The notes under the pieces are model-generated. The model was not told the origin of the DNA. It made no database searches and saw only the letters and a list, made by a program, of their open reading frames with translations. A stretch of 64,000 bases of DNA, from assembly GCA_964594735.1 (NCBI GenBank), contig CAZQMS010000003.1, positions 30,043 through 94,042 of the forward strand. The letters are read 5' to 3'. Positions 4,011 through 60,075 of this stretch are shown in pieces. Numbering within the stretch: position 1 is the first letter of the stretch; every line of letters begins with the position of its first letter. The translations under genes and the position numbers were made by a program. The stretch is from an uncultured Candidatus Saccharibacteria bacterium (GTDB lineage Bacteria; Patescibacteriota; Minisyncoccia; Phycocordibacterales; UBA2100).

Positions 4011-4649
4011 ATGGCTGACGTCACACGGTTTGAGGAAAGAAGGGCACAAGCACTTAAGGATCCAAGTCCAGAACTCAAGGTCTGGGCAAAAAAGGCCGGC
4101 GGTCAGGTGGACCACGTCGCCACGAGTGGCGATGTTGTCGATTACGGTCTGTGGCCAGAGAAACCAAAACCACCAGAGCCAATCAAGCCTGCGTACGACG
4201 TGCATATTAAAGGTGGTGCGATGCTTGATCATCGCAACCCGGGCATCGAAGAGGGGGTGACTAGGGAGGTGAAGCCAGAGAAATGTCCGCCGGGTATCAG
4301 GCCGATTCGACGTGCCGTCGCTGCGAGCGTGTTGATGCCGTACCTCGATGCGTTCATCGTCGAGCTTGACTCACTTGCTCACCGCATCGCGGAACGTTCG
4401 GACAACAAATGGAATGTAATCCTGAAGTTGTACGAAATCATCGAGCTCTCGCGACAATGGCGCGAGGAGATCCGAAAGGGTCAGGGGAAGATGTTTGTGT
4501 CACACGCGATGCTACTTCAGAATATTCTGAATGAAGTTGAAGCTGGTTGCAGCGTGAGATGGAGTGGGTTCTCTCCGGAGGCGCAAGCCGCCCATAAGCT
4601 CGCGCACGAGGCGGGCAAGTGGGTGGATGGGCTCAGACTAGCAAAGTGA
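4011..4649 (+). CDS. Hypothetical protein
   Basis: 212-aa ORF with a GGAGG Shine-Dalgarno 7 nt upstream, followed by a strong rho-independent terminator. No recognisable domain. Confidence 0.6.
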   Translation: MADVTRFEERRAQALKDPSPELKVWAKKAGGQVDHVATSGDVVDYGLWPEKPKPPEPIKPAYDVHIKGGAMLDHRNPGIEEGVTREVKPEKCPPGIRPIRRAVAASVLMPYLDAFIVELDSLAHRIAERSDNKWNVILKLYEIIELSRQWREEIRKGQGKMFVSHAMLLQNILNEVEAGCSVRWSGFSPEAQAAHKLAHEAGKWVDGLRLAK

Positions 4650-5178: not shown

Positions 5179-5346
5179 ATGGAAAAAATCCGAATCGAAC
5201 AACACAGCTCTATCGGTCTCGCATGGATCGCCGGTTGGCTCTTTGCCATCGGCTACCTCAAGCTCGGCTTTATGCAGGGCCTCCTCGGGATATTCATTTG
5301 GCCCTATTACCTCGGTGCGCACTTTGGTCCGGTCGTAGGAATGTAG
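5179..5346 (+). CDS. Possible tiny membrane protein (55 aa, below the ORF-track threshold)
   Basis: MEKIRIEQHSSIGLAWIAGWLFAIGYLKLGFMQGLLGIFIWPYYLGAHFGPVVGM, strongly hydrophobic. A terminator hairpin lies ~100 nt downstream. Confidence 0.35.
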   Translation: MEKIRIEQHSSIGLAWIAGWLFAIGYLKLGFMQGLLGIFIWPYYLGAHFGPVVGM

Positions 5347-5444
5347 CTGTCCACTCGTGCTGCATAGGGGAGGATTTGCTGATGTACAATTACTGTACAG
5401 TTACTAGCCAACATGAACACCATGCTCGGCGGTCACTAAGAGGA

Positions 5445-5466
5445 GGTCCCCGTAAGGGGACCTTTT
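5445..5466 (+). terminator. Hairpin GGTCCCC-GTAA-GGGGACC + TTTT
   Basis: 7-bp perfect stem with a GNRA-like loop, followed by TTTT. Confidence 0.5.
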
Positions 5467-5478
5467 CGTTGGTAAGAT

Positions 5479-6747
5479 GTGCACATGGTAGAGGGCGCAG
5501 CGCACGAGTACAAGGAACGAGCGGGCACATGCGCAGATTGTGGAAATTCTCCGGTGAATCATTTCGAGCATTACGTGTCCAATACGCTCGCGGTCTGGAC
5601 TGCAGAGACGCTCTCGAAGCGGCGGGGGCTGCGGTACGCGCTCACGCGAGCCGGAGGCGCGCTTTTCGACCGCATCGAACAGGGATTTCTTGCGACTATT
5701 GCAGCAATGCCGTTTGCACACCTCTCGCGCGAGGTTGAAAAGGCAGCGACGTACCGTTCACAGGTCGTGTGGGAAGAGGCGGCGCGGCGCGGCATTGTCA
5801 TGGAACAGCTCGTGCTTTTCGGTCGTGGTACCGAAATATACCGTGCTCGCACAGGAGACGGCTGGTTCTACTTCCAAAGCTTGCCGGTCCCGCCTGAGAT
5901 GCGCGGCGAGAGCGCAGGGTGGCTCGACGATAAGCACGCGCTCAAGCGCTTTTTGGCATCCATCGGCGTGGCGACGCCAGAGAGCGCTTCGGTGGCGACG
6001 GTGCACCAGGCTCTCGATGTGTTCAGGGCGCAGAAGGGGCCCGTCGTGGTCAAGCCGCGTTCAGGCTCGCGCGGCAGACACACGACAGTGGGCGTGCGGA
6101 CAGAGGAGGATCTCGCTGCGGCGTTTACGTCGGCACAGAGGCTCTGTCGCTACGTTTCTATCGAGCGGTACCTCGAAGGCCCCGTGTGCCGAGCGACGGT
6201 CGTCAATGGTGCGCTCGCTGGATTTTTCAAAGCAGAGGCACCATCAGTCGTGGGCGATGGCGTGGCGTCTATAGGTGAACTCATTAATCGCAAAAACGCA
6301 GCAAAACCGGATAGGGTACAGGGCATCGTGCTGACCGACGAGCATCGGCAGTTCCTGCTTCGCCAGGGACTCAACGAGCAGTCGGTGCCTGCCTCGGGAG
6401 AGCGCGTGCAGCTCTCCCACCGCACGGGACGCCTTTTCGGCGGAGTGACGCGGGAGCTGCTTGGGAGTGAACATCCGCGGCTTCGCGCGCAGCTCGAACA
6501 CGCGGCACGTTCGCTTGGAATCGGTATTGTAGGATTCGACCTCATCATTCCCGATCCAGAGAGCGACCCCGATGTGCAGGTGTGGGGAATTATTGAGGCG
6601 AACACGCTGCCGTATATCGACCTGCACTATCTGGCGCTGGAGGGACGTCCATCCAATGTCGCCGCCCATCTGTGGGATATGTGGGCTTCGGCTATGCACA
6701 CAAAGGGCGTAGACGTCGCGCACGGAAGCGCTACCATGCAAGCATGA
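5479..6747 (+). CDS. ATP-grasp domain protein (cyanophycin-synthetase N-terminal-like / RimK-like ligase)
   Basis: 422 aa, with ATP-grasp-like segments (VVVKPRSGSRGRHTTVGV...; EGPVCRATVVNG; GIVGFDLIIP...EANTLP). Its stop overlaps the next gene's start (ATGA). Confidence 0.65.
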   Translation: MHMVEGAAHEYKERAGTCADCGNSPVNHFEHYVSNTLAVWTAETLSKRRGLRYALTRAGGALFDRIEQGFLATIAAMPFAHLSREVEKAATYRSQVVWEEAARRGIVMEQLVLFGRGTEIYRARTGDGWFYFQSLPVPPEMRGESAGWLDDKHALKRFLASIGVATPESASVATVHQALDVFRAQKGPVVVKPRSGSRGRHTTVGVRTEEDLAAAFTSAQRLCRYVSIERYLEGPVCRATVVNGALAGFFKAEAPSVVGDGVASIGELINRKNAAKPDRVQGIVLTDEHRQFLLRQGLNEQSVPASGERVQLSHRTGRLFGGVTRELLGSEHPRLRAQLEHAARSLGIGIVGFDLIIPDPESDPDVQVWGIIEANTLPYIDLHYLALEGRPSNVAAHLWDMWASAMHTKGVDVAHGSATMQA

Positions 6748-7170: not shown

Positions 7171-7284
7171 GGTATACCCCGTGAGATAAGGCGCCGCCAT
7201 GCGGCACACCGGGGGCACGTTTTTCGCGCCATTATTGCTTTCAAATTCATACAGAATGAAATATCTCACGGGGTATACTGCGCC
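7171..7284. repeat. Inverted-arm element family 1, copy A (GGTATACCCCGTGAGATAAGG ... 69-nt spacer ... ATATCTCACGGGGTATAC)
   Basis: 17-bp perfect inverted repeat GTATACCCCGTGAGATA. The right arm ends 12 nt before the ATG at 7286. Similar arms occur at 10808-10906 and 33040-33143. Confidence 0.55.
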
Positions 7285-7285
7285 T

Positions 7286-7828
7286 ATGAGGCGCGTTCTT
7301 GCCGTATACATCGTGCTCGGGCTCGTAGGTGTGGGCGCTGCCGCGTACGCATACATGCAAGAGGGTGGCTTTGACGCTCGCGACGGAGGTGGCGCGAGCG
7401 TGGACACCGGCATACAAGCGACCTCGACTGGGCAAAGCCTCGCGTCTCACGATGGCGAGCCCCGGGATGCAGAGCCGAGCGTTGTCATAGGTGGTGTACG
7501 TGTGCGCGTCGATATTGCGGATACGCCAGAGGAGCGTGTGAATGGCTTGAGCGGACGAGAGCACCTCGCGCAAGGGGAAGGCATGCTCTTTATTTTTCCC
7601 ACAGACGACCACCACGGCATCTGGATGAAGGACATGAACTTTTCGATAGACATTATCTGGCTCTCGGCAGAGGGGCGAGTCGTCGATATCGCGCCACATG
7701 TGTCTCCGGAGACGTATCCAGCCTCATTTTCGCCGCGAGATGTAGCCCGAAACGTTCTTGAAGTCCCAGCAGGCTTCGCAAAATCGCATGGTATAGCGGT
7801 GGGAGCCGAGGCCACGATTTTGAGGTGA
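7286..7828 (+). CDS. DUF192-like secreted/membrane-anchored protein
   Basis: Signal-anchor MRRVLAVYIVLGLVGVGAAAYA, then a DUF192-like core (EGMLFIFP...HGIWMKDMNFSIDIIWL). The start was moved from 7199 to the ATG directly before the TM helix. Confidence 0.6.
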   Translation: MRRVLAVYIVLGLVGVGAAAYAYMQEGGFDARDGGGASVDTGIQATSTGQSLASHDGEPRDAEPSVVIGGVRVRVDIADTPEERVNGLSGREHLAQGEGMLFIFPTDDHHGIWMKDMNFSIDIIWLSAEGRVVDIAPHVSPETYPASFSPRDVARNVLEVPAGFAKSHGIAVGAEATILR

Positions 7829-7902: not shown

Positions 7903-10272
7903 ATGCGCATGGCAAATAACACAACGGCTCGCAAGGGAACGGCGAGCGAGGTAAAGGTTCCCGCATCAGATAGCGCTGCACAGCGTGTGTACAAGAAGTA
8001 TCTCCCCAATATTCAAAAAAGAGACGGCCGCATCGTGCCGTTTGAGTTCGACAAGGTCGTCTCTGCTATCAGGAAGGCGATGATAGCGTCCAACGAGGGC
8101 TCCGAAGACGAAGCGGTTGTCGTCGCACACAAAGTCGCGGGAGAAATGATGCGCATTGCCAAGACCTACAAGAATTTCCTCCCCACCGTCGAGGGGTGCC
8201 AAGACGAAGTCGAGCGACAGCTCATGCTCTCGGACTACGTGACAACTTCTAAGAACTACATTCTCTACCGCGCGAAGCGTGCCGAAGACCGCAGAGAGCA
8301 GGGTTCTGTGCCGGAACACGTCAAAAAGCTCGCCGAAGAGTCGAAAAAGTACTTCAAGAGCAACCCCCTCGGTGAATTCGTCTACCTCCGCACGTACGCG
8401 CGCTGGATAGAGACCGAGCAGCGCCGCGAGACATGGATTGAGACCGTGGACCGGTACATCGGCTTTATGAAAGAAAACCTCGGCAAGAAGCTTACCGAGA
8501 AAGAGTACGCAGAAGTCCGCGAGGCGGTGCTCAAGCAGGAAATCATGCCATCGATGCGCGCGATGCAGTTTGCGGGCGAGCCGGCGCGCAAGTGCAACAC
8601 CTGCTTCTACAACTGCTCCTTCACCGCACCGGTGAAGCTCGAGGACTTTGCCGAGATTATGTACCTCTCGATGCAGGGGACGGGTGTGGGCTACTCAGTA
8701 GAGAGTCAGAACATCGAGCAGCTTCCGCAGATTCAGAAGCAGACTGGCGTGAAGCTCCCGAAGCACGTCATCGCCGACTCCAAAGAGGGTTGGTGCGAGG
8801 CGCTCACACTCGGGCTCAAGACGTGGTATTCCGGCAAGGACATCGAGTTTGACTACTCGATGATTCGACCGGCCGGTTCGCGCCTCAAAACCATGGGCGG
8901 CAAAGCATCGGGTCCTGAGCCCCTCCGCAATCTCCTCGATTTCTCGCGCGAGCGCATCTTGCGCCGTCAGGGACGTCGGCTCCGCACCATCGATGCGCAC
9001 GACATCATCTGCAAAATAGGTGAGTGTGTCGTCGCGGGTGGCGTGCGTCGCTCGGCGATGATAAGCCTCTCCGACCTCGACGACGTAGAGCTCCGCGATG
9101 CCAAGAAGGGGCAGTTCTACCTCACCGACGGTCACCGCGCGATGGCCAACAACTCTGCCGTATACGAGAGCAAGCCGACCAACGCGGAACTCATGGATGA
9201 ATGGGTGGCGCTCATGAAATCGGGCTCGGGCGAGCGCGGAATCTTCAACCGCGGCTCACTCGAGAAGACGATGCCCGTGCGCCGCTTCAAGTACCTCGAG
9301 AAAAAGCACGCGAAAAGCGGCATGAAGGGCTACATCGGGCAGGTGGGTACCAACCCGTGCGGCGAGATCATCCTGCAGTCGAAGCAGTTCTGCAACCTCT
9401 CTGAAGTCATCGCGCGTGCGGGCGATACGGAGAAGACGCTTCTGCGCAAAGCGAAGCTCGCGACGCTCCTCGGCACCTACCAGTCGACGCTCACCAAGTT
9501 CAACTACATCTCAAAGGATTGGCAGGAGAACTGCGAAGCGGAGCGCCTCCTCGGCGTGTCCATCACGGGTCAGTGGGACTGCGAGACAGTGCGCAATCCC
9601 AAGGTGATGCGCAAAATGCGCGACCTCGCGATTAAGACCAATGCAGAGTACGCGAAGCGATTCGGCGTCAATGCCTCGACCTCGATTACGTGCGTGAAGC
9701 CATCGGGTACGGTGTCGCAGACATTTGATTGCTCTTCGGGCATCCACCCGCGTCACTCGCAGTACTACATCCGCCGCGTCCGCATCTCGGCGACCGACTC
9801 GCTCTTCAAGATGGTGCGCGACCAGGGAATCCCGCACTACCCGGAAGTCGGGCAGACGATGGGCGAGGCCAACACCTACGTGCTCGAATTCCCCGTGAAA
9901 GCACCAGAGGGCTCGGTCTACAAGAACGACCTCACCGCGCTCGAGCAGCTTGAGTACTGGAAGTCGGTCAAGCTCAACTTCACCGAACACAATCCGTCTG
10001 CGACTATTTCGGTCGGCGAAGAAGAGTGGGTCGCCGTCGTCTCGTGGCTGCATGAAAACTGGGACATCATCGGCGGTCTCTCATTCCTTCCGCGCGAGAA
10101 TCATGTGTACCGACTCGCTCCCTACGAGACCATCGACAAGAAGCGCTACGAAGAGCTCGCAAAAGCATTCCCGAAAATCGACTACTCAAAGCTCGTCATC
10201 TACGAGAGGACCGACGAGACTGAGCAGAAGAAGGAGCTCGCCTGCGCCGGCGGCACGTGCGAAATAGTCTAA
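7903..10272 (+). CDS. nrdJ: Adenosylcobalamin-dependent (class II) ribonucleotide reductase
   Basis: 789 aa: N-terminal ATP-cone-like segment, large RNR catalytic barrel motifs (GTNPCGEI; NLSEV; VKPSGT), and a C-terminal CAGGTCE redox tail. Confidence 0.9.
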   Translation: MRMANNTTARKGTASEVKVPASDSAAQRVYKKYLPNIQKRDGRIVPFEFDKVVSAIRKAMIASNEGSEDEAVVVAHKVAGEMMRIAKTYKNFLPTVEGCQDEVERQLMLSDYVTTSKNYILYRAKRAEDRREQGSVPEHVKKLAEESKKYFKSNPLGEFVYLRTYARWIETEQRRETWIETVDRYIGFMKENLGKKLTEKEYAEVREAVLKQEIMPSMRAMQFAGEPARKCNTCFYNCSFTAPVKLEDFAEIMYLSMQGTGVGYSVESQNIEQLPQIQKQTGVKLPKHVIADSKEGWCEALTLGLKTWYSGKDIEFDYSMIRPAGSRLKTMGGKASGPEPLRNLLDFSRERILRRQGRRLRTIDAHDIICKIGECVVAGGVRRSAMISLSDLDDVELRDAKKGQFYLTDGHRAMANNSAVYESKPTNAELMDEWVALMKSGSGERGIFNRGSLEKTMPVRRFKYLEKKHAKSGMKGYIGQVGTNPCGEIILQSKQFCNLSEVIARAGDTEKTLLRKAKLATLLGTYQSTLTKFNYISKDWQENCEAERLLGVSITGQWDCETVRNPKVMRKMRDLAIKTNAEYAKRFGVNASTSITCVKPSGTVSQTFDCSSGIHPRHSQYYIRRVRISATDSLFKMVRDQGIPHYPEVGQTMGEANTYVLEFPVKAPEGSVYKNDLTALEQLEYWKSVKLNFTEHNPSATISVGEEEWVAVVSWLHENWDIIGGLSFLPRENHVYRLAPYETIDKKRYEELAKAFPKIDYSKLVIYERTDETEQKKELACAGGTCEIV

Positions 10273-10276
10273 AGAT

Positions 10277-10376
10277 CGTACCCGTGCATATTTTGGAGTA
10301 CTAAATTTTCCTGCTGGGAAATTTCTCGGCTCTCGCGCCGTCGCGCTCGAGAGCCTCCAAAATATGCGCGGGTACG
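10277..10376 (+). repeat. Nested-palindrome element family 2, copy 1 (starts 5 nt after the nrdJ stop)
   Basis: 22-bp outer inverted repeat CGTACCCGTGCATATTTTGGAG / CTCCAAAATATGCGCGGGTACG (1 mismatch) encloses an inner hairpin AAATTTTCC-TGC-TGGGAAATTT and the core CGCGCCGTCGCGCTC, which is shared with the copy at 15538. Confidence 0.55.
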
Positions 10377-10414
10377 TGCCGCCAGCGCAGGCGGAAGAGG
10401 GAAATGGAAAAGGA

Positions 10415-10461: not shown

Positions 10462-10716
10462 CTAAATCGTTTCGAGGTCGACGATGTCGTCGGGGCGCTG
10501 CAGTTGGACAAAGGTTACGATTGCCGCCTCTCCGACAGTCTCGTTAAGGTTCTCGAGTTTCTGAACGACGCCGTTTACTCGGAGAACCCCGTAGGAAAAC
10601 TCCTGGCCCTGGAGGCGTGCCTCAAGGAGAATGCGCCGCAGAGTCATTCCTCCATACCCGACTTGTGTGATTTTTTTTGTGGTGCCGTCGAGATAGCTGC
10701 ATTTTACGGTGGGCAT
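10462..10716 (-). CDS. Small beta-grasp-like protein (84 aa; TGS/ThiS-like fold suspected)
   Basis: Strong SD (CAGGAGAAAAGCA-ATG) for the start at 10716, with a terminator downstream. The overlapping antisense plus ORF 10504-10824 is rejected. Confidence 0.55.
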   Translation of the reverse strand: MPTVKCSYLDGTTKKITQVGYGGMTLRRILLEARLQGQEFSYGVLRVNGVVQKLENLNETVGEAAIVTFVQLQRPDDIVDLETI

Positions 10717-10727
10717 TGCTTTTCTCC

Positions 10728-10748
10728 TGTGCAAGTCAGACTTGCACA
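10728..10748. promoter_or_regulatory. Perfect palindrome TGTGCAAGTC-A-GACTTGCACA between the promoter and SD of the 10462-10716 gene (candidate operator)
   Basis: 10+1+10 perfect inverted repeat. A second palindrome TTGACGC-TGG-GCGTCAA lies at 10760-10776 and includes a TTGACG -35-like hexamer. Confidence 0.4.
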
Positions 10749-10807
10749 AGAATGCAACGGTTTGACGCTGGCGTCAAATTTGGTAAAATGTGCCTCTGCA
10801 CTAGGCA

Positions 10808-10906
10808 GTCGCCCCGTGAGATAAGGGCTTCGGAGTTGGCTATTGTTCGGCTTGATAAAGGAATCCGAATACCGGCACCGATTCAGAATCTGTTATCTCA
10901 TGGGGA
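10808..10906. repeat. Inverted-arm element family 1, copy B (GTCGCCCCGTGAGATAAGGG ... 65 nt ... TTATCTCATGGGG); its right arm lies inside the rnpB 5' region
   Basis: Arms match copies A and C. The spacer contains the rnpB P1 5' strand. Confidence 0.5.
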
Positions 10907-11372
10907 GGAAAGTCCGGACACAGGCTTCGCAAGAAGCAGAAAGGTAGCGGGTAACGCCCATCCGCCGCGAGGCGAGAGATGCGAGCAGTGACGCCAACTC
11001 CGAAAGGGGAAGGGTTCCTTCGGGAACAATCATGTCGTAAGGCATGGGTGAAACGGCAAAATTCTTACCCCTGTGCAAGACCGTGACCCATGGGATAATG
11101 CGCTCCGAGTATCTTCGGGTAGCTGCTTCGAGAATGCAGTTCGGAGATGTATAGGTAACCGGAATGCGTTATCCCACGGGTAGAGTCGCTTGAGGTGTGT
11201 GGCAACACACATCCCAGATACATGACGGCCACCGGTTTTGTCTGCCGCAGGCATTTGCAAGGTCGAGAATCTCGAATGAGGTGGGGGACAATCCTTCGCT
11301 CTCGCTCAGGGTCCTCGATTTTGTAGCCACCTGCGGTGGACACAATCGGGACAGAATCCGGCTTATCGGTGC
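10875..11372 (+). ncRNA. rnpB: RNase P RNA (bacterial type A)
   Basis: Conserved blocks GGAGGAAAGTCCGGAC (P4 5' strand), GGTAACGCC, GTAAGG..GGGTGAAACGG and GACAGAATCCGGCTTATCGG (P4 3' strand / 3' end). P1 is GCACCGAT (10875-10882) with ATCGGTGC (11365-11372). A terminator-like hairpin follows at 11380-11413. The 5' boundary is uncertain, and P3 appears very short. Confidence 0.85.
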
Positions 11373-11551
11373 AGAGCAGAGAGCGAAGCAGAGATGCTTC
11401 GCTCTTTCGCTTCCGAATGAGCAAGTCGACTCTGGCACAGCCAAAGAGGGTGCAGAAAACAGACCCCGCGGGGGGTCCGTTTTCATATATGTACTCCACA
11501 GTGCAAACGCGGGGTGGTCGCCTGTTATCGCGTGCTACCATAAATGGCACT

Positions 11552-15525: not shown

Positions 15526-15537
15526 AGAGGAGCTCGC

Positions 15538-15629
15538 GGTGGCCGCGGTGGACAGCACGAGATTTTTCTACTGAAAAATCTCTTCACGTTCGCGCCGTCG
15601 CGCTCACGAATCTGTCCACCGCGGCCACC
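15538..15629 (+). repeat. Nested-palindrome element family 2, copy 2 (starts 13 nt after the murJ stop)
   Basis: 18-bp perfect outer inverted repeat GGTGGCCGCGGTGGACAG / CTGTCCACCGCGGCCACC; inner hairpin GAGATTTTTC-TAC-TGAAAAATCTC; core CGCGCCGTCGCGCTC identical to copy 1. Confidence 0.55.
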
Positions 15630-15678
15630 GACTCGCTGGGAGTGTGAAGAGGAAACTTATCTGTTAGGATGACGTGCC

Positions 15679-18036: not shown

Positions 18037-18134
18037 TGTCCCGGTGCTCTTTTCAGGTACGAAATCTTTCTGCTGAAAGATTTCTCCGCGCTCGCTCCGC
18101 CGAGCTCGCGAGCTCTGAAAACTGCACCGGGACA
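18037..18134 (+). repeat. Nested-palindrome element family 2, copy 3 (starts 12 nt after the preceding stop)
   Basis: Outer inverted repeat TGTCCCGGTGC / GCACCGGGACA; inner hairpin GAAATCTTTC-TGC-TGAAAGATTTC (perfect 10 bp). The right flank ACTCGCTGGAGGTGGGGAAAT resembles the right flank of copy 2. Confidence 0.55.
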
Positions 18135-20587: not shown

Positions 20588-21850
20588 TCAGCCCAGCGAG
20601 GAAAACAGGTGTTCAGCGATGCGGTCTGCCGGAAGCGTTATCTCGACGCCGGTCGAGAGGTTCTTTATCGTGTAGCGGCCCTCGAGGCGTTCTTTCGAGC
20701 CGACCGCAATGATGAAAGGAATGCGCATTTTGTCTGCATGACGTATCTGGTCGCCGATGCGCCTCCCAGAGAAATTGACCGCGACGGTGATGTCTTCTCG
20801 CCGCAGATCCTGCGCAAGACGAATCGCGTGACCTCGAGACTCTTCCTCGACCACACAGAGCATGAGCTCGGTCGCCGGTGCGTACTCAGGCATCAGGTTG
20901 TGTGCTTCGAGGAAGTCGCGCGCGGTCACGTCGCCCATCGCAAAACCGACCGCAGGGACAGGCTCACCGCCGAAGAGCGTGAGGAGGTTGTCGTAGCGCC
21001 CACCTCCGGCGAGGGCGCGCTTGTTGTCTGCGTGCGTATCGAAAACTTCGAACACCATGCCCGTGTAGTAGTCGAAGCCGCGCGTAATCGTCGTGTCGAC
21101 GATGAGGTTGCCGACACCCATGTGTTCGAGAGTGACGCGAAGTTCCTCGAGGTACGCGGTCGAGGTCGTGCGCTCAAGTTCGGCTATAAGCTCGACTGCC
21201 TTCTCTTCGTGCTTGATGAGCTCGGTGAGCTGCTTCTCGAAGTTCTCGATCTTGGCGCGTCGGTCGAGGAGGCGTGTGACGGAGGCCGCGTAGTCCTCGG
21301 CGATGCCGACTGACTGGTACACGGCATCGAGGACGCGCCTGTCGGACACACGTATTTCAAAATCGCGTTCCTCGGCGCCCATGGAGCGGAGGATCGCGTG
21401 TGACATCGCGATGATCTCGGCATCGGCCGCAACGCCCTCCGCGCCGACGATGTCCGCATTGAGCTGCCAGAATTCGCGCAGGCGCCCCTTTTGCGTGCCC
21501 TCATAGCGGAAGCAATTGGCAATCGAGTACCAGCGTGCGGGCTGCGGTATTTCGCGTTGTTTTGCCGCGAACATGCGCGCGAGCGTCGGCGTGAGTTCCG
21601 GGCGGAGCGTCACTTCACGGTCGCCGCGGTCGTGAAAAGTGTACGTCTGCTGGTTGACTATCTCCTCGCTCGTTTTTGCTCGGTAGAGTTCGGCGGGCTC
21701 GAGTACAGACGCGTTGTACTCTTCGTATCCGTAGAGTTCGCAAACGCGTTCCATGTGCTCAAACATGTACCGCTGCACGAATTGGTCTTCGGGGTAGAAG
21801 TCGCGCACGCCCTTGTAGGGCTCGGTCGAGAGTTTGTCGCGCTTGGCCAT
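20588..21850 (-). CDS. hisS: Histidyl-tRNA synthetase
   Basis: Class II aaRS motifs (RYEGTQKGRLREFWQ; GGGRYD) and a HisRS anticodon-binding C-terminus. Confidence 0.95.
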   Translation of the reverse strand: MAKRDKLSTEPYKGVRDFYPEDQFVQRYMFEHMERVCELYGYEEYNASVLEPAELYRAKTSEEIVNQQTYTFHDRGDREVTLRPELTPTLARMFAAKQREIPQPARWYSIANCFRYEGTQKGRLREFWQLNADIVGAEGVAADAEIIAMSHAILRSMGAEERDFEIRVSDRRVLDAVYQSVGIAEDYAASVTRLLDRRAKIENFEKQLTELIKHEEKAVELIAELERTTSTAYLEELRVTLEHMGVGNLIVDTTITRGFDYYTGMVFEVFDTHADNKRALAGGGRYDNLLTLFGGEPVPAVGFAMGDVTARDFLEAHNLMPEYAPATELMLCVVEEESRGHAIRLAQDLRREDITVAVNFSGRRIGDQIRHADKMRIPFIIAVGSKERLEGRYTIKNLSTGVEITLPADRIAEHLFSSLG

Positions 21851-31023: not shown

Positions 31024-31767
31024 TTACATCGCGAGGAGTTCTTGAATCACGCGCTCGGTCTCGGCGGGGCCGGAGACGGAGCGGGTATGGATGCCAGTGG
31101 GGATGACGACGGCGTCGTTGCCGCCCTCGTAGAGTGCGTCGCCCACGTAGAGCATGTCGGTGGGTTGCAATTTCGTGCGTTCGCAGAGCCAGCGGACGCC
31201 GTAGGCCTTGTCGATGCCCTTTTTCGTGATGTCTATCGTGGAGGCGCCACCGGAGCGGATTTCGTACTCAGCGAGTTGGGGGCGCAGGTATGCCATGATT
31301 TCTCGGCGTTTCTTTACATCAGGGTCCCACTGCATTTTTATCTCCTGCGGCGCGTCGAGACCGACGACGGTGTACGCGATTTGCACCTCGCGGTCTGATA
31401 TGCGCTTGCCATAAGCCTCCGTATCGCGAATCACTGGCAGTAGCGTCTCCGCCTCCGCGATGATGCTCTTGATGCGCTCGCGCTCTGCGGGGCTCATCGC
31501 ATGGTTGTACTCTTCGTTCCAGCCATCCTGCCACGTGTAGGCCTGCGCGGCGCTGTTGGTGAGAAGTGTCAGGTGGGAAATGTGCGGCGCACCATCGAGC
31601 TGCGAGAGCACGTGATTGGCGACGCGCTGAAATCCCGCGCCGGTCATTATCGCCACCGGCACCTTCTCGAGGAGCTTGCGCAGGAGCGCCATCATCTCGG
31701 GCTTGGGCGGCTGGAAACTCTCGGTGAGCGTCTCATCCAAATCAAAGATGACGTGCTTGTACGGCAT
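31024..31767 (-). CDS. HAD-superfamily hydrolase, subfamily IIB (Cof-like sugar phosphatase)
   Basis: Motif I VIFDLDETLT and motif IV YVGDALYEGGND. The track ORF's N-terminal half (31768-32403) is antisense to the GH1 gene and was removed. Paralog at 55590-56306. Confidence 0.7.
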   Translation of the reverse strand: MPYKHVIFDLDETLTESFQPPKPEMMALLRKLLEKVPVAIMTGAGFQRVANHVLSQLDGAPHISHLTLLTNSAAQAYTWQDGWNEEYNHAMSPAERERIKSIIAEAETLLPVIRDTEAYGKRISDREVQIAYTVVGLDAPQEIKMQWDPDVKKRREIMAYLRPQLAEYEIRSGGASTIDITKKGIDKAYGVRWLCERTKLQPTDMLYVGDALYEGGNDAVVIPTGIHTRSVSGPAETERVIQELLAM

Positions 31768-31818
31768 GGGGACAAGGGTACCACGAAGCGCGCCAAGCGG
31801 TCTGGTACTATTCGCCGC

Positions 31819-33054
31819 ATGCATGAGAAGACCTTCCCCGATGGATTTTTGTGGGGAGCCGCTACCGCCGCATACCAAGTAGAAGGGGGGATAGAGAATT
31901 GCGACTGGGCCAAGGCGGCGCGCGAGGGTAAAGTGCCGGCGTGCGGGATGGCCTGCGACCACTACAATCGCTACGAAGCCGATTTTGATATTGCAAAAGA
32001 GCTCGGGCACACCTGCCACCGCCTTTCTATAGAATGGGCGCGCATCGAGCCGGAAGAGGGGAAGTGGGACGAGAAGGAGGTCGAGCACTATAGGAAAGTG
32101 ATTGAAGCGCTGCGCGCGCGGCACCTCAAGCCGTTCATTACACTCTGGCACTTTACATTGCCACAATGGTTTGCAGACAAGGGCGGATTCGAGCACCCGG
32201 ACGCGCCGAAGATTTTTGCGCGCTACTGTGCTTTTATTGCGGAGAAATTTGGCAACGACTGCCGCCACTTCGCGACGATGAATGAGCCGGGCGTCTACGT
32301 ATCCAATGGGTGGAGGCGGGGGAGCTGGCCGCCGTTTCGTGCGTGGCCGGGCATCGGCGCGATCAGAGCAGTTCCCGGCCATCGCGAGTTTAGCGCTCAG
32401 CACATCTCGTGGCGCAACATCCCGGCATATTTCCGTATGATGCGGCGCTTAGCTGAGGCGCACAACGTTGCGTACGATGCGATGAAGGCCGCGGGCTTCG
32501 GCGTGGAAGTGGGGCTCGTGCACCAAGTAATCCTTTTCCACGCGAATGCTAATCCACTCAATAAGCTGCTCGCAGCGGTGATGAACTGGCACTGGACGCA
32601 CTCATTCATTCGTCGCGTGCACCACAAATGCGATTCTATCGGGGTCAATTACTACCTGCACAAAAAGTTTGGTGACACGCGTGTGTACGACAAAACAGAT
32701 ATGGGCTGGGATGTGTACCCCGAAGGCCTCTGCGACGCGCTTCTTATGCTGAAGCGCTACGGGAAGCCACTGTGGGTGAGCGAGGCAGGCGTGGCAGATG
32801 CCGGAGACCGCATCCGCGCCGACTACATAGAGCGACTCATCCGCTGCATGCACACGGCTATCGAGAAAGGTGCCGACGTGCGCGGCTACATGTACTGGTC
32901 GCTCCTCGACAACTACGAATGGGCGCACGGCTTTGAGAAGCGATTTGGGCTCGTGGCGGTTGACTACGCGACGCAAGAGAGAAAGGTGCGTCCGTCGGCG
33001 TACGTATACAAAGCAATAATCGAGCGCAATGGCTTAGTAGACCCCGTGAGATAA
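31819..33054 (+). CDS. Glycoside hydrolase family 1 beta-glucosidase
   Basis: N-terminal FPDGFLWGAATAAYQVEGG; catalytic-acid region ...TMNEPGVYV...; nucleophile region YITENG-like VSEAGVAD; C-terminal motif WSLLDNYEWAHGF. Confidence 0.85.
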   Translation: MHEKTFPDGFLWGAATAAYQVEGGIENCDWAKAAREGKVPACGMACDHYNRYEADFDIAKELGHTCHRLSIEWARIEPEEGKWDEKEVEHYRKVIEALRARHLKPFITLWHFTLPQWFADKGGFEHPDAPKIFARYCAFIAEKFGNDCRHFATMNEPGVYVSNGWRRGSWPPFRAWPGIGAIRAVPGHREFSAQHISWRNIPAYFRMMRRLAEAHNVAYDAMKAAGFGVEVGLVHQVILFHANANPLNKLLAAVMNWHWTHSFIRRVHHKCDSIGVNYYLHKKFGDTRVYDKTDMGWDVYPEGLCDALLMLKRYGKPLWVSEAGVADAGDRIRADYIERLIRCMHTAIEKGADVRGYMYWSLLDNYEWAHGFEKRFGLVAVDYATQERKVRPSAYVYKAIIERNGLVDPVR

Positions 33055-33143
33055 GCCAATTCGATGACTCACACGATCGTCGCGGCCGGCGGGTTTGTTC
33101 GCAGCAAATAGTCGGAGGGAGTATCTCATGGGGTAGAATAAGG
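33040..33143. repeat. Inverted-arm element family 1, copy C (GACCCCGTGAGATAAGCC ... 63 nt ... GTATCTCATGGGGTAGAATAAGG)
   Basis: The left arm contains the GH1 stop codon. The right arm ends 12 nt before the ATG at 33146, the same spacing as copy A. Confidence 0.55.
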
Positions 33144-33145
33144 CG

Positions 33146-34036
33146 ATGTCGTGGCTCTGGATAGCGATTGCCGCACAGTTTCTCCTCGCGATTTCAGTCG
33201 TTATCGACAGGCATATTGTCGTGAGGGCGGCGCACATCGGCCGACCCATCGTCTATACATTTTATACGTGTGTCCTCTCCGGCTTTGTCGTGGTCATCGC
33301 GCCGTTCGGGCTCGTCTCGATGCCATCGAGCGAGGTATTCTTGCTTTCGCTCCTGAGCGCCGCGACTTTTGTCGCAGCGCTCTACTACCTCTACAGCGCG
33401 CTGCGTGTTGCACGTGCATCCGACGCTGCACCCGTCATCGGGGCGATTTCTGCACTCACATCACTGGCTCTCGCGTGGGTATTCGTGGTGGGCGACATCA
33501 GTGCGCACGCGGTGCCTGCGGTGCTGCTCCTGGTCTCTGGTACTGCGCTCATCTCGCACTTTCACTTCAGGAAGCACGCTCTTGTGTATGCACTCACCGC
33601 AGGAGGGCTCTTCGGTGCAGCAATTTTCCTGACCAAACTCGTGTACAACGCGACAGGCTTCCTCGACGGATTCTTCTGGACGCGCGTACTCGCGCTCGTA
33701 GTCGCACTCTCTTTCCTCGCGGTTCCCTCGCTGCGGCGGGCAATTTTCCACGGTGGTAAACACTCGAGTCGCGGTGCCAGATCGCTCGTGCTCGCCAACA
33801 AAGTAATCGCGAGTAGTGCAAGCGTGCTCACGGCGTATGCGGTATCTCTCGGGAGCGTCGCGGTCGTCAATTCGCTTGCGGGTCTGCAGTTCGCATTTCT
33901 CTTCATCTTCTCGCTCCTCTTTGCCAACTTCATGCCGCGGGGCGATGACCCGATGACGCACGGTCACGGCGGGTGGCAGACCGGAGTGGGTGTGGTACTC
34001 ATCGCGCTCGGGCTCGGCACGCTCTTCCTCACATGA
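33146..34036 (+). CDS. DMT-superfamily (EamA-like) 10-TM membrane transporter
   Basis: Two repeated 5-TM halves, typical of EamA. Confidence 0.55.
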   Translation: MSWLWIAIAAQFLLAISVVIDRHIVVRAAHIGRPIVYTFYTCVLSGFVVVIAPFGLVSMPSSEVFLLSLLSAATFVAALYYLYSALRVARASDAAPVIGAISALTSLALAWVFVVGDISAHAVPAVLLLVSGTALISHFHFRKHALVYALTAGGLFGAAIFLTKLVYNATGFLDGFFWTRVLALVVALSFLAVPSLRRAIFHGGKHSSRGARSLVLANKVIASSASVLTAYAVSLGSVAVVNSLAGLQFAFLFIFSLLFANFMPRGDDPMTHGHGGWQTGVGVVLIALGLGTLFLT

Positions 34037-59676: not shown

Positions 59677-60075
59677 AGCTACAATCGCAGCTCCTTCGCA
59701 GCGATGCCCGTATGCACCGGGGAGGCTGCGTGCTCTGCACTACAGCCTCCCCGGCTTACATGATGAGTACGTCGCGTTCCGACTTGGAGCGCTCGCTGTG
59801 TGAGTGCATGAGAAGAAGAATTATGTGTCGAACGGAAGTGTCCGCCGGGTGCTAATGATTATCGCTGATAATCCGTCGGGGTCTTTCGCCCAGCCCCAGT
59901 TTTGCCTACAAGATACGTGCGAACCAAAACTGGAGCTGGGCTGCCCCGCAATGTGCTATGCGTCCAGATGCAAACTCTATCCGGACTAACGTGAATCACG
60001 GATGAAGATGTGTCGGTACCCGTGACACACGGGTATACGCAATACACAATATTGAGAGCACAATCGAATCAGGAA

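Follow-up and report, generated by a model that had tools for sequence, protein, structure and literature searches.

An inverted-repeat element as the probable P3 helix of a Patescibacteria RNase P RNA

The window analysed here, a stretch of 64,000 nucleotides of contig CAZQMS010000003.1 from an uncultured Candidatus Saccharibacteria bacterium, carries rnpB, the gene for RNase P RNA, next to a gene for ribonucleotide reductase (RNR). A first-pass annotation of this locus had drawn attention to two inverted arms at the 5' end of rnpB, the left arm GTCGCCCCGTGAGATAAGGG at 10808-10827 and the right arm TTATCTCATGGGG at 10893-10905. All sequences quoted in that annotation were found where it had placed them, namely the arms, GCACCGAT (10875-10882), ATCGGTGC (11365-11372) and GGAGGAAAGTCCGG, which stands right after the right arm. 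Over 13 bp, the core arms CCCCGTGAGATAA and TTATCTCATGGGG can pair with each other, a single G.T pair included. When up to two mismatches were allowed, CCCCGTGAGATAA matched the window seven times against 0.97 expected, and none of 100 shuffled sequences reached seven; the abundance of the motif in the window is not due to chance. The matches include three arm pairs with interiors unrelated to one another, hereafter copies A, B (10812-10905) and C (Table 1), and the arm pair is thus a repeated element, as had been claimed. Copy B is the pair located in rnpB, and the role of this copy is the main subject of the present work. Loci from other genomes are denoted below by L and a number.

Table 1. 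Coordinates of the rnpB features and of the two other arm pairs in the window
Feature	Start	End	Strand	Remarks
Copy A	7177	7273	no strand	97-nt unit lacking an open reading frame, perfect arms
rnpB promoter	10762	10789	+	-35 TTGACG, 16-nt spacer, TG-n-TAAAAT -10 box; 10/12 matches
P1 5' strand CTCTGCACT	10794	10802	+	pairs with 11368-11376; transcribed part probably from 10796
P2 5' strand GGCAGTC	10804	10810	+	pairs with 11224-11230
Left arm, base of P3 5' strand, CCCCGTGAGATAA	10812	10824	+	slot of the ordinary P3 of relatives
P3 extension, element interior	10825	10892	+	68 nt; about 9 more G.U-rich pairs, variable tip
Right arm, base of P3 3' strand, TTATCTCATGGGG	10893	10905	+	fused directly to the P4 strand
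P4 5' strand AGGAAAGTCCGG	10906	10917	+	conserved; read from the sequence
P2 3' strand GACGGCC	11224	11230	+	one A.G mismatch against the 5' strand
118-nt hairpin module	11232	11349	+	P19-like position, between the P2 and P4 3' strands
P4 3' strand ACAGAATCCGGCTTA	11351	11365	+	read from the sequence and relatives
P1 3' strand GGTGCAGAG	11368	11376	+	overlaps ATCGGTGC (11365-11372)
Terminator-like hairpin AGAGCGAAGCA-GAGA-TGCTTCGCTCT	11380	11405	+	3' of rnpB; read from the sequence
Copy C	33042	33133	no strand	92-nt unit lacking an open reading frame, TAGA/TAGA flanks

At the Rfam gathering threshold (100 bits for RF00010), no RNase P RNA was called in the window. A permissive search yielded a local hit of 62.9 bits that covers model positions 14-318 and starts at 10872; the nearest relative, L158, scored 55.9 bits, and relatives with an ordinary P3 108-128 bits. 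The low score of the window gene can be ascribed to the P3 element and the other hairpins inserted in it. As Rfam was unreliable here, we took the helix map from syntenic rnpB loci of relatives, which were retrieved via the adjoining RNR gene. In four lineages (L160, L161, L162/L163 and L164/L165), of which the RNR genes are 83-90% identical, Rfam aligned rnpB end to end with the above 108-128 bits. P1 and P2 of these relatives lie on UGCCUGCAUUAGGCAGUC or near variants, followed by one unpaired G, a P3 of 18-27 nt and then GAGGAAAGUCC. Positions 10791-10811 of the window are homologous to this P1-P2 stretch, and the 94-nt arm unit replaces the short P3. The window gene shares with type-A RNA (RF00010) the conserved P4 strands (GAGGAAAGUCCGG ... 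ACAGAAnCCGGCUUA at 10906-10917 and 11351-11365), the order P1-P2-P3-P4, in which the 5' end pairs with the 3' region as P1 and P2 and a P3 hairpin lies between P2 and P4, and the P8/P9 and P18 signatures.

The same map emerged from folding and covariation. The minimum free energy fold of 10785-11385 pairs 10791-10802 with 11367-11378 (P1) and 10804-10811 with 11223-11230 (P2), and pairs the arms with each other, which forms the base of a long hairpin extending exactly to AGGAAAGUCC. We examined covariation across 19 distinct rnpB genes of many lineages, which were aligned as composites on anchor sequences. In P2, which adjoins the left arm on its 5' side, all seven pairs show compensatory changes, and 95.5% of cells are paired, against 25-58% when the 3' partner was slid as a control. 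The helix that P1 forms with the 3' terminus is seen in nearly all lineages and is contiguous over 9.1 bp on average against 5.2 bp in shuffled sequences, its own sequence being wholly lineage-specific. The P3 extension is also structured: its fold has a z score of -5.1, copy B folds more stably on the + strand (-45.3 kcal/mol) than on the - strand (-27.8 kcal/mol), and a consensus stem with G.U pairs is found in four distinct sequences, those of the window, L129, L138 and L148. In the window, the -10 box of the promoter is followed by 6 nt and CTGCAC, and all relatives have the same layout with CTGCAY; from this promoter and gap, the transcript start is predicted at about 10796, the first base of P1, and the RNA is predicted to span from there to 11376. 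On these comparative grounds, the arms of copy B are the P3 helix, 94 nt long including the 68-nt extension, of a type-A RNase P RNA. P1 to P3 are kept identical in L158 while other helices differ, which suggests that this part of the putative RNA is under constraint. The terminator-like hairpin 3' of the gene has counterparts 3' of rnpB in L138 and L158; it was not called by a terminator scan because its T run is short.

The map changes several details of the first-pass annotation. Copy B is physically within rnpB, in the P2/P3 region, since the ordinary P3 of the relatives occupies the same slot. The annotation had offered insertion into, or co-option as, the leader or P2-P3 region, and co-option in P2-P3 was essentially right. 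A leader position and a fusion to the 5' end have to be abandoned, as P1 and P2 covary 5' of the left arm, which is also downstream of the promoter, and the left arm can no longer be placed upstream of rnpB. Likewise, P3 is not a 3-bp stub; the arms pair into an unusually long P3. An antisense open reading frame (ORF) ending in PVR* does exist (10504-10824). Nevertheless, it is merely mechanical, because a TAA within the arm stops it; any ORF in that frame ends there, as does the GH1 ORF at copy C.

Arm-type P3 helices are found in many other rnpB genes. In metagenomes, a search for right arms joined to the P4 strand returned 39 contigs in which P3 reads CCCC[G/A]UGAGAUA ... UAUCUCAYGGGG, with loops of 3, 6-9, ~14, 26-40, ~68 or up to ~254 nt. 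They represent at least six rnpB lineages with differing P1/P2 sequences. In 17 of the 39, the left arm lies ~266 nt upstream and an ORF of ~80 codons fills the P3 loop, beginning a few nucleotides past the left arm and stopping 4 nt short of the right arm. The product is a GIY-YIG domain (Pfam PF01541, E = 8e-14) of 80 aa, with nothing past the catalytic domain and no linked DNA-binding domain. Its closest solved relative is 1ZG2, a stand-alone UPF0213 protein (E = 3.4e-6), and the group I intron endonuclease model TIGR01453 (NCBIfam) gave 19-21 bits against a cutoff of 56, matching the N-terminal motif only. In the rnpB genes that hold it, at least 13 distinct ones, the gene always lies between P2 and AGGAAAGUCC; it is absent from L160-L164. 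As separate observations, the GIY-YIG ORF in P3 is broken by frameshifts or stops in L123, L125, L131 and L155, with the arms intact, so that these copies are decaying. The arm-type sequences TATCTCACGGGG, TATCTCACAGGGG and TATCTCACGGGA also stand directly before the P4 3' strand ACAGAAUUCGGCUUA in L139, L141 and L157; judging from these sequences, the arm hairpin can be housed at a second place in rnpB, in front of that strand.

The association of the gene with the arms extends beyond rnpB. A protein-side search returned 308 matches at E < 1e-10, mostly from Patescibacteria, and we examined the DNA around five diverse members. Both arms flank all five: two are in rnpB P3 (L166, and L177-179, of which the arms changed symmetrically to CCAC...GTGG) and three elsewhere, with flanks TATA/TATA in L167 and L173 and TATA/TTAT in L172. 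Further homologs adjoin dispersed units in Omnitrophota, Verrucomicrobia, Planctomycetes and KSB1, with both arms present in L071 and L115. The arm-flanked units fall into two size classes, ORF-less ones of ~95 nt and ones of 276-281 nt with an intact gene for the ~80-aa GIY-YIG protein. In most sampled ORF-bearing copies, the left arm has TGAGATAAT as its inner end and an ATG follows 7-8 nt downstream. A neighbour-joining tree of the 80 residues, which is weak evidence, intermixes the proteins borne on rnpB and those from other sites.

We also scanned genomes, one per species, for CCCCGTGAGATA-N(55-85)-TATCTCAYGGGG with exact arms, and obtained at least 118 loci. They span Kaiserbacteria, Saccharibacteria, Paceibacterota/Parcubacteria and Nomurabacteria as well as Pirellulales, Phycisphaerales, Verrucomicrobiia, Omnitrophota, Ignavibacteria, KSB1 and others. 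Viral contigs searched for both size classes gave no matches, and no rnpB signature was found beside an arm among the genome-scan matches listed. The first-pass annotation had named as signs of coincidence that the arms fall into standard helices with no leftover and that the motif is absent from other loci of relatives. The arms indeed lie in P3 with nothing left over, but absence elsewhere is strongly contradicted: the motif is abundant at other loci of relatives, and thus the overlap of copy B with rnpB is no coincidence. Among the matches listed, the length of ORF-less units is narrow, with a peak at 94-97 nt. Near-identical copies occur at different loci of one genome in L036 and L042, and other copies are in tandem. 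The interiors of the dispersed units have no excess structure (mean z of -0.2 and -0.7) and do not extend the stem, unlike the rnpB copy; the apparent strand preference of their folding stems solely from the single G.T position of the arms. What is conserved in them, two arms at a fixed spacing around an unstructured interior, points to recognition at the DNA level. An Rfam covariance-model search of copies A and C (E up to 10) detected nothing meaningful. We further noticed tandem arrays sharing a 4-nt junction (e.g., ...GGGGtgtaCCCC...) in L071 (KSB1; 1726-2295), in L035, L014 and L075 (Saccharibacteria) and in L044; in L071, three ~95-nt units are located directly 5' of an ORF-bearing 281-nt unit.

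Filled and empty sites could be compared for copy A, which lies between a DUF1761 gene and a DUF192 gene. It is flanked by TATA at 7173-7176 and 7274-7277 and is inserted in the -10 box of the DUF192 gene, which is leaderless and starts with the ATG at 7286. The copy is absent at seven relatives' loci (L158-L165), where the spacer is at most 39 nt and holds no unit. In the nearest relative, the empty site reads cacGTATAATgctcctATG, and the filled site of the window reads gcggGTATA[97 nt]TATACTgcgcctATG. GTATAAT in the former thus corresponds to GTATA[97 nt]TATACT in the latter, with 4 bp (TATA) duplicated within the -10 box of a leaderless gene. The reverse case is L013: at a site where TACTAT, 7 nt and ATG follow one another without interruption in the window, it carries an 85-nt unit. 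Copy C is followed 3' by TAGAAT, 6 nt and an ATG at 33146, and its orthologous site also holds units in L002, L020 and L095. In the L013 ortholog of copy C, both outermost arm bases are altered symmetrically (C-G to A-T), and the interior is only ~50% identical, against ~90% for the flanks; this divergence suggests turnover or re-occupation of the site.

The flanks behave similarly on a larger scale. In the CPR-type copies (CPR, Candidate Phyla Radiation) among the matches listed, 18 pairs of non-palindromic 4-nt flanks are direct repeats and one pair is inverted, and TATA/TATA occurs 24 times. Direct 4-bp repeats also surround the ORF-bearing units L167 and L173. Among the matches listed, TAnnnT abuts the arm at 42% of right ends and, read outward, at 27% of left ends against 1% at random positions, and the distance from the arm to the starts of long ORFs peaks at 12-13 nt on both sides; both findings fit units that entered the TATA of -10 boxes either way round. 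No rule was seen as to whether the T-bearing arm faces the downstream gene, ORF starts lying 11-16 nt off at 16 right and 13 left ends among the same matches, and a search for a -35 box supplied by the element to downstream genes found none. The dispersed units thus have 12-13-bp terminal inverted repeats that are exact across phyla, target-site duplications and filled and empty sites, as transposable elements do; the rnpB copies have no target-site duplication. By these sequence hallmarks, the dispersed units behave as mobile DNA, and copies A and C are such insertions. Independently of the above units, the alignment of L013 (~5215-5565, reverse strand) with window positions 31760-31880 contains a further insertion of ~117 nt, which starts with TATGGGGTGAGACGGGG, is located ~45 nt downstream of the 85-nt unit and falls in the would-be 5' part of the GH1 gene.

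Taken together, positions 10812-10905 of the window are very probably a P3 helix formed by a resident, ORF-less 94-nt member of a mobile inverted-repeat family associated with a GIY-YIG gene. The 12-13-nt ends CCCCGTGAGATA(A) and (T)TATCTCAYGGGG would pair as the base of P3, and the 68-nt interior would lengthen the helix. The longer P3 would be tolerated because P3 is a peripheral hairpin, and the RNA is predicted to stay a working ribozyme. In ORF-bearing copies, TGAGATAAT in the left arm is a putative extended -10 promoter for the leaderless GIY-YIG ORF. The nuclease may recognise both arms and cut with a 4-nt stagger at TNNA flanks and targets, and host ligation or repair would then complete the cut-and-paste. 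The rnpB copies, which have no flanking duplication and the arms of which abut P2 and P4, probably spread, or were maintained, by recombination between rnpB alleles, or else the arms arose in rnpB.

Several of our own results weigh against this reading. The Rfam score of the window gene is below threshold, and the permissive alignment mis-places P2/P3 onto 10872-10905, where many of the pairs are non-canonical; the mature 5' end, the retention of the P3 extension and the activity of the RNA are all inferred. Copy B has no flanking direct repeat (its flanks are GTCG and AGGA), and its arms abut P2 and P4 exactly, with no trace of an older P3. An insertion at rnpB can therefore be deduced only from the patchy occurrence of the element among relatives. 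No GIY-YIG homolog was found across the 64-kb window, and the P3 interiors of the window's clade have no consistent similarity to the ends of the GIY-YIG ORF. Among the matches listed, the interiors of ORF-less units are mostly unrelated between copies, even in one genome, and a remnant of the ORF was seen in L067 only; the ~95-nt units thus did not arise simply as recent deletion derivatives, and the model leaves their narrow length unaccounted for. The exact-arm search also tilts the genome sample towards intact copies. Finally, an 80-aa nuclease with no DNA-binding domain is unlikely to act as a lone transposase.

Among the alternatives, the model of the first-pass annotation has rnpB begin within the spacer, with P1 formed by GCACCGAT and ATCGGTGC, the left arm in the leader and P3 reduced to a 3-bp stub. 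The 8-nt complementarity is real and the local Rfam alignment begins at 10872, but that hit is poor (62.9 bits, non-canonical P2/P3), and the relatives, which align globally, place P1/P2 on the homolog of 10791-10810. P1 and P2 covary 5' of the left arm, and the promoter predicts a start at ~10796. GCACCGAT falls inside the P3 extension, with P1 mapping to 10794-10802/11368-11376, and is missing from the extensions of L129, L138 and L148 despite their common architecture, so that the complementarity is not conserved; in L161, ATCGGTGC is present at the 3' end although P3 is short. We regard this model as hardly credible. It is highly improbable, too, that the arm pairs are host regulatory sites, i.e., inverted protein-binding sites ~84 bp apart near promoters, the likeness to P3 being incidental or due to a shared binder. 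Conserved arms and length, free and unstructured interiors, the adjoining -10 boxes and the persistence of exact-arm units at orthologous sites across genera would suit such sites. Nevertheless, filled and empty sites are clean with a 4-bp duplication, the flanks are direct and not inverted, tandem and near-identical copies exist, a nuclease gene lies between identical arms, and the downstream genes (DUF192, GH1 and an uncharacterised protein) have no common function. Equally, the dispersed units might be transcribed into hairpins resembling P3, which would act as decoys or processing signals by binding a component of RNase P or another P3-binding factor. Stem and P3 have the same sequence, the CPR copies keep the G.U on one strand, and the arms of L013 and L177 changed symmetrically in a compensatory manner. 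Nonetheless, the G.T variant can equally be explained by a C-to-T transition at the CpG of the arm, the dispersed interiors have neither excess structure nor stem extension, the units lie upstream of the predicted starts of leaderless genes in either orientation, and no Rfam family matches copies A and C; the chance that such mimicry is genuine seems very remote to us.

A more serious contender, albeit one we consider unlikely, is that CCCCGUGAGAUA/UAUCUCAYGGGG is the ancestral P3 of CPR rnpB, into which a GIY-YIG gene homed before the unit became mobile; copy B would then be native. Arm-type P3 helices in at least six rnpB lineages, including those with loops of 3-9 nt, the rnpB copies lacking a flanking duplication, CCCC/GGGG at the base of P3 as the general Rfam consensus and the dominance of rnpB-borne proteins in the GIY-YIG tree agree with this scenario. 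It fits less well with the ordinary, non-arm P3 of the four RNR-syntenic lineages or with members of the family in phyla distant from CPR, where the flanks are other ones. The arm is at the same time promoter-like with respect to the ORF, as befits the terminus of an element, and conservation of sequence is unexpected for a helix that needs only to pair. With regard to direction, the patchiness among RNR-syntenic relatives and the occurrence in distant phyla point to an invasion of rnpB, whereas short-loop arm-type P3 helices in several lineages and the missing duplications at rnpB point to an origin from rnpB.

If we return to the preferred reading, a resident mobile element as P3, it is attractive to speculate further that the 276-281-bp unit is an autonomous cut-and-paste transposon of a new class, equipped with 12-bp repeats, an arm promoter and the 80-aa GIY-YIG protein, for which P3 serves as a safe harbour and of which the window P3 is a decayed resident copy. 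We hold this extension tentatively and with more doubt than belief. If it is the case, the unit would rank as the smallest known self-mobilising element and as the first transposon of prokaryotes to be driven by a GIY-YIG protein, TNNA cuts with 4-nt overhangs would explain the duplications and the clean empty sites, and the rnpB transcript in many CPR bacteria would double as the mRNA of the element.

Among known elements, the nearest analogy is provided by insertion sequences (ISs) and miniature inverted-repeat transposable elements (MITEs), above all by those of the piggyBac/IS1380 type, which use TTAA or 4-bp targets. The arm units resemble these in the 12-bp terminal inverted repeats starting with CCC, the 4-bp T..A duplication, the clean empty sites and the excess of short ORF-less derivatives over ORF-bearing units. 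They differ from ISs in that the sole gene of the ~278-bp full unit encodes an 80-aa GIY-YIG protein and not a DDE, HUH, tyrosine or serine transposase, and from amplified MITE families in that the short units of one genome have unrelated interiors; the short units share no interior with the full element or with each other, except in L036/L042 and the tandem arrays. Similarly to homing genes of the GIY-YIG type (I-TevI, Seg), the nuclease gene lies at a defined position in an essential structural-RNA gene and is patchily distributed. I-TevI is ~245 aa long, and homing yields no target duplications. In contrast, the arm-element protein has 80 aa and no DNA-binding domain, no intron is evident, and the copies outside rnpB have target duplications. 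UPF0213/YhbQ proteins (1ZG2, Bacillus halodurans BH0048) are comparable in their single GIY-YIG domain and size; to our knowledge, they have not been described as flanked by inverted repeats or resident in rnpB. Intervening sequences of 23S rRNA, some with small ORFs, are excised by RNase III, and Rickettsia palindromic elements are in-frame peptide insertions in RNA or protein genes. Both resemble the arm element in that extra hairpin DNA is tolerated in a helix of an essential structural RNA. However, the arm element replaces the helix instead of extending it, and no sign of excision was seen here. Integron attC sites, REP/RAYT, CRISPR-like arrays, invertons and NrdR boxes do not match the arm element in end sequences, flanks and associated gene.

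In the CPR, RNase P RNAs were reported by Lui et al. (2021) to be diverged and sub-threshold in Rfam, with helices extended or missing and manual refolding needed (PMC8172020). Unlike in RF00010 and these diverged CPR forms, the base of the 94-nt P3 in the window has a fixed sequence common to dispersed repeats and elsewhere encloses a gene; the consulted parts of that report on RNase P RNA do not mention the P3 repeat family or the GIY-YIG gene (PMC8172020). Homing endonucleases are known from insertions in CPR rRNA genes (PMC11270868). In the literature searched, the coverage of which was incomplete, neither the arm sequence nor a prokaryotic GIY-YIG inverted-repeat element nor a gene inside rnpB was found to be described. 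The arm-element family is thus apparently undescribed, a provisional statement, and the element and the element-type P3 appear to be new findings.

If the preferred reading holds, an essential ribozyme can owe one of its core helices to a mobile element, or have it in common with one, and P3 can enclose a protein-coding gene in many CPR lineages. The element-type P3 would explain part of the escape of CPR rnpB from covariance-model detection, and a practical annotation rule follows: P3 is CCCCRUGAGAUA ... UAUCUCAYGGGG with a loop of 3 to ~254 nt. Beyond rnpB, the units form a family that spans phyla and is marked by exact 12-bp ends, duplication of 4 bp (TNNA), a preference for the -10 boxes of leaderless genes and a minimal GIY-YIG protein as its sole gene product. 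In case the nuclease drives the movement, a new transposition chemistry would be contained in a unit of less than 300 bp.

Other hairpin modules were noticed in and around rnpB. The 118-nt module (Table 1) is G.U-rich and folds at -69.2 kcal/mol (z = -8.8). A counterpart of ~115 nt, with 84% column identity and compensatory changes, is found directly after P4/P5 in L126 (3705-3840) and L166 (1769-1904), and a further module is listed in L158 (4512-4642). As compared across lineages, the module is a second structured module of rnpB, predicted at differing positions of the gene. In L158, hairpin arms GCCCAGCCCCAGTTTTG/CAAAACTGGAGCTGGG are located at 4213-4268 and 4428-4470 of rnpB, where P5-P7 and P15-P17 of the window differ, and the same arm pair occurs at 59888-59941 of the window; it looks like another putative hairpin family that exchanges in and out of rnpB. 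Structural-RNA genes of the CPR thus appear to be mosaics of exchangeable hairpin modules.

The -10 hexamer followed by 6-7 nt and an ATG, or by the first base of P1, recurs at 7274-7288, 33134-33148 and 10784-10796 of the window and at many CPR loci, a sequence pattern that points to widespread leaderless transcripts in these Patescibacteria. Further inverted-repeat units of ~95-105 nt, close to the arm element in size, are located at 10277-10376 (nested in 10239-10393), 15537-15630, 18037-18134 and 20827-20930. They have arms of 19-24 nt of unrelated sequence and spacers of 56-58 nt, and the first of them is directly 3' of the RNR stop codon. Between rnpB and the divergent gene for an 84-aa protein (10462-10716, minus strand), which has no Pfam match, there are two palindromes, TGTGCAAGTCagaCTTGCACA (10728-10750) and TTGACGCtgGCGTCAA (10762-10778). 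The latter overlaps the -35 box of rnpB, and both may be candidate operators.

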